Shown here in pieces: positions 32,410-39,887 of a stretch of 64,000 nucleotides of DNA (positions within the stretch are counted from its first letter, which is position 1; each line of letters begins with the position of its first letter). A program made the translations under genes and the position numbers. The stretch lies in the NCBI RefSeq assembly GCF_055900595.2, contig NZ_CM148325.1; one strand, 5' to 3'. The notes under the pieces are model-generated. The model saw only the letters and a list, made by a program, of their open reading frames with translations, ran no database searches and was not told where the DNA came from.

Positions 32410-32736
32410 CTATTTATTTAAACCGGACATATTAATACCTATATACGATAATTCATCTAAATCTTGATGCCTATTTGTAGGTTCTAAATAACGTGCAGGA
32501 AATAAATCCCTGGCAGCATGATAATATAAAATAGAGATAATATCCTTTTGTATTTCCTTCAATGCCTCTCTATTTTCACAACCAGTAATTTCATAAACCT
32601 CCTGATCGCTACAATTTTCTAATACATAATTTATGCACGATTCATAAATCATCAAACCGTCTTCTGATACATCAATGTGAAATTGATTCACTGTTCCTGA
32701 AGGATTTCTATGTTCCAATAAATACATTTCTCTCAC
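32410..32736 (-). CDS. candidate Rhs immunity protein (RhsI)
   Basis: 108-aa acidic, AT-rich ORF starting 3 nt after the rhs stop codon. Confidence 0.6.
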   Translation of the reverse strand: MREMYLLEHRNPSGTVNQFHIDVSEDGLMIYESCINYVLENCSDQEVYEITGCENREALKEIQKDIISILYYHAARDLFPARYLEPTNRHQDLDELSYIGINMSGLNK

Positions 32737-32739
32737 CTA

Positions 32740-35700
32740 TTAAAATCTTACATAATCACTAAATATATCTCTAAATTCATCAAGTTCACTTTGAGTTGGT
32801 CTTTCCCATCGGTCAGTATTTCTATTCATTCGATGTTGGATATTTTTCCTAGAGATATCCCTCATAGATGTGACAATTTCAGAACCATCTTTTTCAATTA
32901 TATGTGCTCTGCCATTTGGTCCCAGTACAACCCACCGCCCATCTGATTGCTTTAATATATCGCTAGAACGCGCATTTTGAAGATCATTAATAACAGCACC
33001 AATAGGTCGACCTTCACGATGCCGTTGTAAAGCATGACTACTTTTCTTCAAAGTAGCACACATCTGTCCCAACGGATCGATCCAACTTAATGGATTCGGT
33101 GCATATTGATAGAGATTCAGTCCCCCCGCCAGCCCTATCGGGTCCGTTACCATGAACCGCCCGACATCCGGATCATAGTACCTGTGCAGATTGTAATGCA
33201 GCCCTGTTTCCCTGTCGAGGTACTGTCCCTGGTAGCGCAGGTTCTGCTCCACCCCGCCGTGGTCCTTCTCCTGTATCGTGTTACCCCAGACCTGATACCC
33301 CGTCTCCCACACGATTTTCCCGTCACTGTCCGTCATCTCTTCCGGCGCACCGTTCACATCCGTGTGAAAATACAGTATCCGGTTCGGTCCCTCTTTGCCC
33401 GCCTTATCCACCCGCGCCAGCGGTTCATAACTCCCCTGGTCACTGTAGATATACAGGCTGCCTGTTCCCTCCGGCCTGCTCTCCTGCGCCAGCCGCATTC
33501 CGTCCCATAAAAATGTCGTCCGGTTATACGGTTTACCGTCAGGGCTGATGTGCTGTTTTTCCGTCCGCCTCCCCAGCGCATCGTACACATACCGGTACGT
33601 TCCCCGCGCTGTCGTCACTTCCACCATCCGGTGTTCCGCATCATAACGGTAACTCTGCGCTCCGCTCCGGCCCTGCTTTTCCACCGTCCGGCCAAATTCG
33701 TCGTAACGGTAGTGCACACCACGGTAAGACATCAGCCGGTTGAACGGCACAACGCTGTTTTCTGCCGTGGCCCTTTCCCCCGCACGCCGCCCCAGCAGGT
33801 TTCCCGCCGCGTCGTACTGCCAGCTCGCCAGATACCCCTCATCCTCCGAGCGGCACGCCGTGATGCGCCCCGTGGGGTCGTAGAAGTAATCCGTTTCCCC
33901 CCGCCGGCTGTGCCGCGTCTTCAGCAGTTCATCCTCGCCGCTGTAGCTGTACTGCCGGTCCGTGAACGTCTCCGGTACCACCCCGCGCATCCCGCTGTAT
34001 GTCTCCCTGCGCTTCAGCCGCCCGGCGGTGTCGTAAAGCTGCCGCGTGCTCAGTCGCCCCTGACTTCTGAGCACCTCCCGGTGCAGGGCGTCACGTGTGA
34101 ACTCGCTGATGACCTCCCGGTCCAGATTTATCTGCTGGAGATGGCCGCTGCCGTAGTACAGATGGCGCTGCGTTCTGCCGTCCGGAAAGGTGGTGGCTGT
34201 CCGGTTGCCCAGTTCATCGTACTGATGGGTCAGGACGCCCTGCGCCGTCTCCTCGGTCAGCATCCGCCCCAGTCTGTCGTAACTGAAGCGGATAACTTCC
34301 GGCGCGTCAGTTTCGTGCCGCTGGCGGCGGATTTCCAGTAGCTGGTCTGCCGCATCATGGACGTATTCCGTATGGCTATCGGCTGTCTCCTTTGCCGTGA
34401 GCCGGCCCGCCGCATCGCGCGCCAGCCGGTGACGGATTTCACCGCCCCGGTCCCCGGTGAACACCACTTCCGTGACCGCGTTCAGCGCGTTGTAACGGTA
34501 CGCCTGGCGGCAGCCGTCCGGATTTATCTGCTCCGCCAGACGGTCCAGCACATCATGGCGGAACCGGTAGCTTTCTCCGTTCTCGTTCGTGAGCGTGACC
34601 AGACGCCCGTAAGCATCGTACCCGAACGCCGTCCTGCGCCCCGTCGCGTCTGTCCGGCTGCGCACCCGGCCCTGCCCGTCCCGCTGCCAGCGCGTTATCC
34701 TCCCCATCGGGCTGGTGTACTTCACCAGCCTGCCCGCCGCGTCCGACTGGTAATTCACCGTGCGGCCGTCCGCCAGTATCACCTCCGTCAGATGACCGCT
34801 GTCGTCATACCCGTAGCGCGTGCTGTGGCTCTGCGCGTCTGTCATTCTGATAAGCCGCGTGCGTTCGTCGTAGAACCAGGCCGTCTGCGAGCCGGAACAG
34901 TCCGTGTGCCGCATGAGCTGCCCGTCTTCGTTCCACTGAAGGTATTTATTCCCCCCACGGGCATCGGTTATCTGCACCACCTGGCCGTGGCGGTCATACT
35001 GATACCGGGTGTTCTGCTGCAGCGGGTCGGTCACCGCAAGAAGATTGCCGCGTTCATCGTACTCACAGCACCAGCTGTTCCCCGCCGCGTCCACCTCCGT
35101 TTCCGGCTGGTGCCACACCGGGTGCCACTGTGTCTGTGCCACCCGCCCCAGCGGGTCGTGCGTCTCCGTGATATGCCCCTGCCGGTCATACACATAGCGC
35201 CATTTGCCGCCCTGCGCATCGCTCATTCCCAGTAACAGCCGTTCTTCGTCGCTCCAGCGGAACGTCGTCACCTGCCCGGCTTCGTCCTGGTACGCCGTCA
35301 CCTGGTTCTGCGCATCCCACTGATGATAACGCGTGCGCCCCAGCCCGTCCGTCACGCACAGCCTGCGTGCCGCCAGGCTCCACGCCAGCCGGTACTGTTC
35401 ACCGCTGTCCGTGTGGTGCCCCGTCACCCGCCACGCTGCGTCATCCGGGCCTTCATACCAGCCCCACTGGTAATAATACCCTTCGCCGCCCGGCTGGCGG
35501 TGCAGGGTCATGCAGTGGTTTTCGTCGTAAGCAAACTCACGCAGCAGGTGCCCCGTGCTGTCGTACACGCCGTTCAGGTCGCCGGCCTCGTCATAGCGGT
35601 AACGACGCAGCAGTAAAGGAGCCGTCTCAGGGAAATGCTGATAAATCTGTGTCACCCGCCGGGGATGCGCCGCCAGTTCATAATGCAGACGAATGCACGG

Positions 35701-37842: not shown

Positions 37843-37892
37843 AATGGTATGAGTCCTTGTTAATTAATAAATTATTTAATGATGGTTTTTAT

Positions 37893-39887
37893 TTATTTTT
37901 TAGTCATGAAGGTGACGTCTATTGCCAACTGAAGGGCTGTTTTCTCCGATGTTCCAGGCGGAGGTATATCTGCCGCTCTGTCATTCATATTTAAATCAAG
38001 CTGCCCTGATTGTGTATTTATCTTTCCATTTTCCGTTGCGGTAATATTAAAATTCTTACAGGTTATATTAAATATTCCGTCACTGGTCATTTGCAGGATA
38101 GTTTCTCCGCAGCTAAGAATAATGGAATCTCCCGCAGCAAGGCGTAAATTCTGTACGGCCTGAATCGTTTTATTTCGTCCGGCAAGGGAGGTATCATCCG
38201 TCTGGACTGTTAGAGAACGTTTCTCACCAATAATCGCAGTTTCTGTTTTATCAATGACTTTAAGGCGATTATTGCCCACCCAGTGGCTTTCATTATTATT
38301 TACTTCAATGCGTTGATCTTTCTCGGCATGCAACCAGATTTCTTCTCCGCCAGTTTTATCCTCAAAACGCAAGGCGTTAGCATTGGTCGGGCCGCCGCCG
38401 ATAGTGTGGCTGTAAAACCCGCTTTGCGTCGCTGCGCCCGGTAGTCCCCACGGTGGCATGGTGTCCTGATTGTAGGTACGCCCAACGATTATCGGTAAAT
38501 CCGGATCACCGTTTTTGAAATCCACCAGTACTTCCTGACCAATGCGCGGGATCTGAATGCCACCGAATCCTTTACCCGCCCACGGATAACTGACACGGAC
38601 CCAGCAGGAACTGTTTTCATCATTCTTACCGTAACGATCCCAGCCAAACTGAACTTTCACCCGGCCATATTTATCTGTCCAGATTTCCTGTCCCGTCGGG
38701 CCGGTCACGATGGCGCTCTGCGGGCCTTTAGTATGGGGTTTGCTCAGGGTTCGCTGCGGGCGGTAAACTTCGCTGGTGGGATGCAGTTCAAAGCTGGTTG
38801 AGTAAGAGAAATGCTGCTCCTGGCCGCTGTGTTGCGCATTGTCCTGTATAAATAGCGTGGTCTGAACCAGCAGATATTCCCGGTTCACTTCGGCTGTCGG
38901 ATAGTTTTCCAGGGTGAAGGTAAAACCTGTCATCAGGGTACGAATATTGCCGCTGCCCTGTACCCGACTACCGGGGCTACACTGTTCTTCCATGCGGATG
39001 CGTGTCAGCATTTCACCTTCACTCTTTGTGAAGTAGTCTCCCGGCCATTCGTAGTGCTCATATTCAGCAAGGCCAGTTTCACGCGGATTAGCCACGGTGC
39101 TCTTGAGCAGTGAACGCGGCTTCATAAAGTCGAAATCATTTAGTACCCACTGTCCGCTGCGCAGGCTTTCATTTGCTGTGATGGTATGGATAAATTCCTT
39201 GTCCAGTTTCAGCCCTTTCTGGTAATAACACACCAGTGGCGAATCTGCGCACGCCTTGTGGACATTAATGGCATCAGCCAGCACTAACGTGTGACTGTTC
39301 TCGTTGTGCTCAAACCACCAGTAGATACCCCACTCCTGCATCAGGCGCTGAATAAAATCGAAATCTGTTTCACCGTACTGCACCTGCCAGGCGCGAGTCG
39401 GATAATTTTCCACCAGTCGTTTTTCCACTGGCCAGGGGTACTCATCCAGTACCTCATCCAGGATCTCCACCACGTTTTTATTTTGAAACGCTTTGTAGTC
39501 ACTAGTGTGGGTCAGTATTTTTAACCACGGTTCAATCCGCAGTTCATACACCACCGAACGTCCTTGATGACCAGCCACGCGTGCCGCCGTCACCAGCCCG
39601 CTGATATAACGTTTTCCGCCGCCATCCAATTCGATATTGACGCACAGATCTTTGCCCACCATCGGTTTGAGCTGCAGGTTGGCTGCGGGGGAAACATAGC
39701 CCAGGTTCAGGATGTCAGGAGTTTTTAATTTAATAGAATAAGTAAATAGTTCCCCTACTGTTTCTGTCCCCCCTAAGCTTGCAAACAGTAACATTCCATC
39801 AGGAACTGCGCTGCCGCTCAAAGTCACGTTATGTGTACCCGATCCAGTTAGTGCGCCGGATGGATAATCTGTAGCTGCAAAACTCAT
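37893..39887 (-). CDS. vgrG: type VI secretion system spike protein VgrG
   Basis: 664-aa ORF with gp27/gp5-like features (e.g. [63 protein letters not shown], beta-helical repeats). Directly upstream of eag-rhs. The N-terminus is atypical; start taken as the first ATG after the upstream stop. Confidence 0.85.

Follow-up and report, generated by a model that had tools for sequence, protein, structure and literature searches.

A probably stranded type VI secretion cargo operon of the class I prePAAR/Rhs kind in Escherichia coli

Islands with the gene order vgrGO1-eagR-PAAR-Rhs-CT are known from Escherichia coli, where they lie outside the main type VI secretion system (T6SS) cluster and carry orphan Rhs-CT/immunity units downstream, as set out in two accounts (PMC6730261; bioRxiv 10.1101/2024.03.05.583533). 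We analyzed a 64-kb stretch of E. coli DNA (contig NZ_CM148325.1 of RefSeq assembly GCF_055900595.2), hereafter the window, which contains an island resembling these in species, gene order, site outside the main cluster and downstream orphan units. The likeness is one of descriptions rather than of VgrGO1 sequence, and the window island differs in that its toxin tip and immunity protein belong to no named Pfam or NCBIfam CT family and its nearest genomes appear to be without T6SS-1. We read the region, with good confidence, as a complete T6SS cargo operon of the class I prePAAR/Rhs kind that is probably stranded in its lineage.

Structures are available for two related systems. VgrG1-EagR1-RhsA of Pseudomonas protegens (7Q97, 7Q5P; PMC8765631, PMC7773334) shares with the window island the prePAAR motif, a single transmembrane (TM) region, a PAAR domain with an internal linker, a plug, a YD cage and two aspartates 22 residues apart. 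Relative to RhsA, the window Rhs has ~77 extra PAAR-linker residues in two places, Q instead of W before the C-terminal cut, and a different toxin, and its Eag is only distantly related to the P. protegens Eag. The SciW-Rhs1 module of Salmonella Typhimurium SPI-6 (6XRB, 6XRR, 9MVG) likewise places a DUF1795 chaperone gene beside a class I prePAAR Rhs effector. The island represents a well-understood kind of system, for which there are solved homologues and earlier experiments in E. coli. What is new is modest: its uncharacterised and unnamed toxin/immunity family, a cassette unrelated to K-12 rhsE, two overlooked effector/immunity units, and a module that is likely orphaned.

Composition of the cargo operon

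The open reading frame (ORF) listing gave four tightly spaced minus-strand ORFs (Table 1) whose coordinates and lengths match exactly those of an earlier note made from the sequence alone, and domain searches agreed with its description of a vgrG/Eag/prePAAR-Rhs/immunity module. VgrG scored 557 bits against TIGR03361 (cutoff 186; model positions 9–512 of 513, starting at residue 30), exceeded the curated cutoff of TIGR01646, and matched Pfam Phage_GPD (5e-97; residues 41–350, model positions 1–304 of 305), Phage_base_V and Gp5_trimer_C. The layout is that of a gp27-like hub, an OB fold and a gp5 beta-helix; the protein ends soon after the beta-helix, with no C-terminal effector extension, and by its domain content is a plain spike. 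Among PDB sequences it aligned best with 9mlp (1081 bits), followed by P. protegens VgrG1 (7q5p, 465 bits) and Pseudomonas aeruginosa VgrG1 (452 bits), the alignments to VgrG structures beginning at residues 10–29 and that to 9mlp at residue 10. The N-terminus had been suspected to be atypical or shortened. An N-terminal truncation was ruled out by the starts of the domain models (position 1 of Phage_GPD falls at residue 41, and TIGR03361 is similarly placed), by the 9mlp alignment, and by an AAGGA Shine-Dalgarno sequence 8 nt 5' of the vgrG ATG.

Between vgrG and the prePAAR rhs gene lies the eag gene. Its product matched Pfam PF08786 (7e-19; residues 18–137, 117 of 127 model positions), which we take to be the family formerly called DUF1795 and now named DcrB, and weakly matched the Salmonella SciW structures 6xrb, 6xrr and 9mvg (E ~1e-3). 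The protein is the predicted chaperone for the TM region of the effector.

Class I prePAAR effectors are defined as large Rhs proteins with AARxxDxxxH at the extreme N-terminus, one TM region before PAAR, and a cognate Eag (PMC7773334, Ahmad et al. 2020). In the window Rhs, a regular-expression search placed the motif AARQGDALLH at residues 7–16 (nt 37324–37353), where it aligns with AAREGDPIKH of Tre23; the N-terminus as a whole aligns with the prePAAR and transmembrane domain (TMD) of Tre23 and with RhsA. The predicted TM region follows at residues 17–73 (nt 37153–37323), and on hydropathy alone, residues 13–73 form the sole segment in the first 480 residues with a Kyte-Doolittle mean of at least 1.6. 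The PAAR domain is split over residues ~97–345. PAAR tetrapeptides occur at 113 and 308, Pfam PAAR_motif matched residues 293–323 (2.3e-5) with a weak first repeat at 97–119, and both halves aligned with the PAAR region of RhsA 7q97 (independent E-values 9.5e-5 and 9.4e-16), while the score against NCBIfam T6SS_PAAR_dom stayed at 18.5 bits (cutoff 124). Downstream are a DUF6531 plug (residues 397–475, Pfam 7.5e-19), a cage of nine YD_repeat stretches (2.4e-64) and an Rhs_assc_core at residues 1359–1436 (8e-29). Over 1150 residues, the alignment to RhsA 7q97 reached 1056 bits. The prePAAR-TM-PAAR-Rhs architecture proposed in the earlier note was borne out by every domain test, and by its motif, predicted single TM region and PAAR domain, the protein is classed as a class I prePAAR effector.

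The autoprotease of RhsA consists of D1324 and D1346, with the cut four residues after the second aspartate (PMC8765631). The corresponding residues in the window Rhs are D1410 (DPIGL) and D1432 (DPLGQ), also 22 residues apart, and the released toxin is therefore expected to comprise residues 1437–1543. The last residue of the PxxxxDPxGL autoproteolysis motif is Q in the window Rhs (DPLGQ, residues 1432–1436, nt 33064–33078) and also in its closest homologue from E. coli. DPLGL is the form in most family members, and RhsA of P. protegens has W.

Table 1. Features of the island, with the core operon first and the flanking units after it.
Feature	Position (nt)	Strand	Description
vgrG	37893–39887	minus	664 aa, full-length T6SS spike
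eag chaperone	37390–37842	minus	150 aa, DUF1795/DcrB family
rhs effector, whole ORF	32740–37371	minus	1543 aa
rhs delivery and cage part, aa 1–1436	33064–37371	minus	Pfam, NCBIfam and PDB alignments
Rhs toxin tip, aa 1437–1543	32740–33063	minus	107 aa plus stop codon
cognate immunity ORF (predicted)	32410–32736 as listed; 32410–32727 from the conserved ATG	minus	108 aa as listed; 105 aa from the conserved ATG
HExxH (zincin-like) putative effector gene, head of island	40461–41030	minus	189 aa
frameshifted lipoprotein gene	40109–40464	minus	putative periplasmic immunity
orphan Rhs core-end fragment with tip	31908–32320	minus	92-aa tip; translation, RefSeq annotation
immunity gene of the orphan toxin	31227–31811	minus	SUKH-4 per RefSeq

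The solved homologues suggest how the module would operate. In the cytoplasm, a dimer of Eag would shield the N-terminal transmembrane helices of the effector, the prePAAR motif would complete the PAAR fold, and PAAR would cap the VgrG trimer. The 107-aa toxin would be enclosed by the Rhs cage and freed after Q1436 by the D1410/D1432 aspartyl autoprotease. On firing, a T6SS would inject spike and effector together into a neighbouring cell, where the TM region may assist passage of the toxin across the inner membrane into the cytoplasm, and sibling cells would be protected by the 105-aa immunity protein.

Toxin tip and predicted immunity protein

Neither the toxin tip nor the immunity protein matched anything in Pfam, NCBIfam or PDB sequences. 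With the tip as query, a word-indexed search found close relatives in E. coli, Salmonella and Pectobacterium, only eight in all. In an exhaustive profile search, 653 cluster representatives passed E ≤ 1e-3 and 119 passed E ≤ 1e-10, all of them with the domain at the C-terminus. Carriers include a 3736-aa protein of the filamentous-haemagglutinin/CdiA type and other Rhs proteins, and relatives in the AlphaFold database include Rhs proteins of Paenibacillus and Brevibacillus as well as VENN-motif proteins. As judged by sequence, the tip is a genuine polymorphic-toxin domain, widely shared and unnamed.

Across 32 diverse members, H10, R14, D27, Q39, G48 and R52 (toxin numbering) are invariant and H54 is nearly so. 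From these residues we tentatively propose that the tip is a metal-independent RNase acting in the cytoplasm, a proposal we rate slightly short of even. It resembles weakly the BECR-fold RNases (colicin D/E5, CdiA-CT of E. coli O32:H37 and NC101, BrnT, HigB/RelE). The profile of the 32 sequences gave chance hits only against PDB sequences; Foldseek found nothing at E ≤ 0.001 in the PDB and only uncharacterised members of the same family in AFDB50. That the tip has some other cytoplasmic activity, for example as a DNase, by targeting NAD(P), or by modifying a protein target, has in our estimate an even chance.

The adjoining small ORF is predicted to be the cognate immunity gene, a stronger assignment than that of the toxin activity. 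Homologues 39–46% identical to its product are encoded 10–19 nt 3' of toxin homologues in Pectobacterium, Salmonella and two metagenome contigs, so that the linkage covers four loci and at least two other genera. The earlier note had identified this ORF as the immunity gene at 108 aa; the ORF and its identity stand, and alignment with the homologues shortens it to 105 aa, with its start codon (ATG) at 32727. No signal peptide is present, which fits a toxin target in the cytoplasm.

Distribution of the island and co-occurrence with T6SS genes

Among 5426 complete E. coli genomes, 124 contain at least 80% of window positions 31000–41900, and only two contain the segment in full; at least 80% of the upstream island segment is present in 223. 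Sequence comparison shows a cassette that recurs at the ansP-yddH hot spot in ~4% of complete E. coli genomes, with a conserved backbone and an exchangeable tip. Strain D10, for instance, has the same backbone (HExxH, lipoprotein, vgrG, eag and rhs) with a different Rhs tip and different immunity genes.

T6SS genes were sought with chimeric queries in which a single-copy island tag (39890–41870) was joined to core-gene fragments from the three T6SS clusters of enteroaggregative E. coli (EAEC) 042, and matching places were counted per record. The test covers DNA-level similarity in the chromosomal records of proxy genomes; a very divergent or plasmid-borne machine would escape it. The tag joined to tssC of all three families (blastn) had a second matching place in 53 of the 60 best carriers, and the same pattern was obtained with T6SS-1 tssC alone. 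Queries with T6SS-1 tssB, tssK and tssF gave three to five places in the same genomes. The tag by itself matched one place in every record, a control that excludes the tag sequence, rather than tssC, as the origin of the second place. By this measure, the island normally travels with a T6SS-1-family machine, which agrees with the T6SS1 dependence reported for vgrGO1-eagR-PAAR-Rhs-CT islands of E. coli (PMC6730261; bioRxiv 10.1101/2024.03.05.583533; both cite Ma et al. 2017, Environ Microbiol). The identities of VgrG to the three cluster-encoded VgrGs of EAEC 042 (24%, 34% and 24%) are not diagnostic; family assignment by that route was abandoned, and co-occurrence is the basis for the assignment to T6SS-1.

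Two complete genomes carry the exact island with ~100% identical flanks. In neither was tssC (any of the three E. coli families) or T6SS-1 tssB, tssK or tssF detected, and only a tssA fragment is left, at aspV. Six sister genomes of the same lineage have T6SS-1 markers. In the one of these six that was inspected, E400634 (NZ_CM128600.1, 9815–13998; ~100% identical flanks), the island is broken by a deletion: vgrG is a 930-nt pseudogene without its 3' end, eag is gone, and the loss of the rhs 5' end leaves an Rhs of 1076 aa without prePAAR, TMD or PAAR. The aspV locus of E400634 holds the same tssA remnant. Among the genomes examined, the lineage thus contains either intact ammunition without the machine or the machine with broken ammunition.

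We consider it rather probable that the source strain is itself without a T6SS and that the module is stranded, recently orphaned ammunition, of which only the immunity genes would still be useful. The lipoprotein immunity gene adjoining the operon (see below) is frameshifted, which fits a history without firing. Several observations weigh against a stranded module: rhs (4.6 kb) and vgrG (2 kb) are both complete ORFs, unlike what long-term disuse would predict; the six sister genomes retain T6SS-1 markers; and a test built on DNA similarity to EAEC 042 genes in chromosomal records would miss a divergent or plasmid-borne machine. The earlier note had the island depend on a T6SS encoded elsewhere; if that held, it would be an active auxiliary weapon of a strain with a working T6SS-1. 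The core module genes, all intact, normally spaced and with a ribosome-binding site, are consistent with such a role, as are the T6SS-1 markers in most carriers of this island type and in the six genomes of the lineage. We nevertheless regard it as unlikely, because the sole two genomes that combine the intact island with this toxin have no tssB, tssC, tssK or tssF, the inspected T6SS-1-positive sister is missing eag together with the 3' end of vgrG and the 5' end of rhs, and the lipoprotein gene is frameshifted; the window alone cannot show dependence on a machine elsewhere, and the claim is now in doubt.

Cells without a T6SS might also keep the island for a T6SS-independent purpose, for example solely to bank immunity against T6SS-armed kin, or for another role of Rhs. 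Three immunity-type genes lie within 10 kb, two of them intact, orphan toxin/immunity arrays are known to bank immunity (review PMC6730261), and the large ORFs are intact though the machine is absent from the nearest genomes. Immunity alone, however, needs no intact 4.6-kb rhs or vgrG, and recent loss of the machine accounts equally well for their intactness; the 16 differences available are too few for a ratio of nonsynonymous to synonymous change (dN/dS). We judge this explanation improbable. More improbable still is that active maintenance preserves the intact 7.5-kb operon in a sub-lineage of E. coli that has lost every T6SS, and that its toxin tip would be the first characterised member of a new enzyme family across Rhs, CdiA and Gram-positive Rhs/WapA-like toxins. 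If true, this would imply a machine-independent role, for example operon-coupled immunity banking, another export route, or a recombination reservoir. The stranded cargo operon remains our preferred reading.

The ansP-yddH hot spot and the neighbouring units

The island is flanked by narV, yddE, nhoA and yddH on one side and by ansP and yncE on the other. As the earlier note stated, the 64-kb window contains no T6SS core genes (tssA-M, hcp, clpV). This sets the island apart from the Salmonella SciW-Rhs1 module, which presumably sits within the main T6SS cluster. The ansP-yddH slot is occupied in K-12 MG1655 by rhsE, which we confirmed to be a pseudogene at the same position, in line with its earlier description as a remnant. 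A reading of the window gene as the intact counterpart of K-12 rhsE is not supported: the two Rhs proteins are only 29–37% identical over their aligned parts, and the window Rhs scored 325 bits against NCBIfam NF041261 'RHS element core protein' (RhsA-D type), for which the equivalog cutoff is 2000. Compared with K-12 (1522001–1538000), only a 120-nt fragment of yncG (glutathione S-transferase) is left (41591–41710), and yncH, K-12-type rhsE, ydcD, yncI, ydcC (ISAs1/H-repeat) and pptA are absent from the hot spot in the window. From this gene content, the K-12 content of the hot spot appears replaced by the island rather than extended, and the window Rhs and K-12 RhsE are best described as different cassette lineages at a common chromosomal hot spot. 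The vgrG2-rhsE island of EDL933 occupies the ansP-yddH slot as well, with vgrG 5' of rhsE; it differs in that a DUF1795 gene is reported at the vgrG1-rhsF island and none is mentioned for vgrG2-rhsE (PMC7216683). The appropriate annotation label is therefore a T6SS cargo island at the ansP-yddH hot spot and not an intact rhsE. A promoter/terminator scan yielded 22 promoter-like sites, where 16.1 ± 3.9 were expected, and terminators below chance, and was not used.

The island spans ~31227–41030 and thus extends beyond the four-gene core; the four genes named in the earlier note stand, and two further effector/immunity units had been overlooked. At its head, directly 5' of vgrG, an HExxH protein and a lipoprotein form a second putative effector/immunity pair, and a pair of the same type is present in the Sci-1 cluster of EAEC 042. 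The HExxH protein (motif HETMHVWQ; 176 aa from an internal ATG in the RefSeq version) is 42% identical to an unnamed EAEC 042 Sci-1 protein encoded between clpV and the lipoprotein/vgrG genes. It had no usable match in Pfam, NCBIfam or PDB sequences, and in the literature we found no described function for EC042_4531/4532. The lipoprotein, which may provide periplasmic immunity to the HExxH protein, scored 30.7 bits against NCBIfam NF045617 ('putative T6SS immunity periplasmic lipoprotein'), short of its 43-bit cutoff. Its gene has a 1-nt deletion at ~40256/40257 when compared with the T6SS-1-positive strain D10, in which the gene is intact and encodes 118 aa, and RefSeq labels the gene 'frameshifted' in a 99.9%-identical genome.

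At the opposite end, an orphan unit consists of a core-end fragment, 85% identical in DNA to the 3' core of the main rhs, joined in frame to a different toxin tip; RefSeq annotates it as 'RHS repeat-associated core domain, partial' and 'putative toxin'. The tip holds 'YRLPD...IAETK', which could be a PD-(D/E)xK nuclease motif. The adjacent gene at 31227–31811 is annotated by RefSeq as 'SUKH-4 family immunity protein' in two genomes, one of which is E. coli E400634; in our own scan it had no NCBIfam match.

Two aspects of the island extend beyond the locus, both of modest research value and neither likely to surprise a specialist. The tip/immunity family, with its 653 cluster representatives carried by T6SS Rhs, CdiA and Gram-positive Rhs proteins, is without a name, structure or activity and would be cheap to test. 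The second aspect is the natural contrast in T6SS decay seen within the lineage, which fits work on the loss of T6SS activity in E. coli (bioRxiv 10.1101/2025.02.08.637259).

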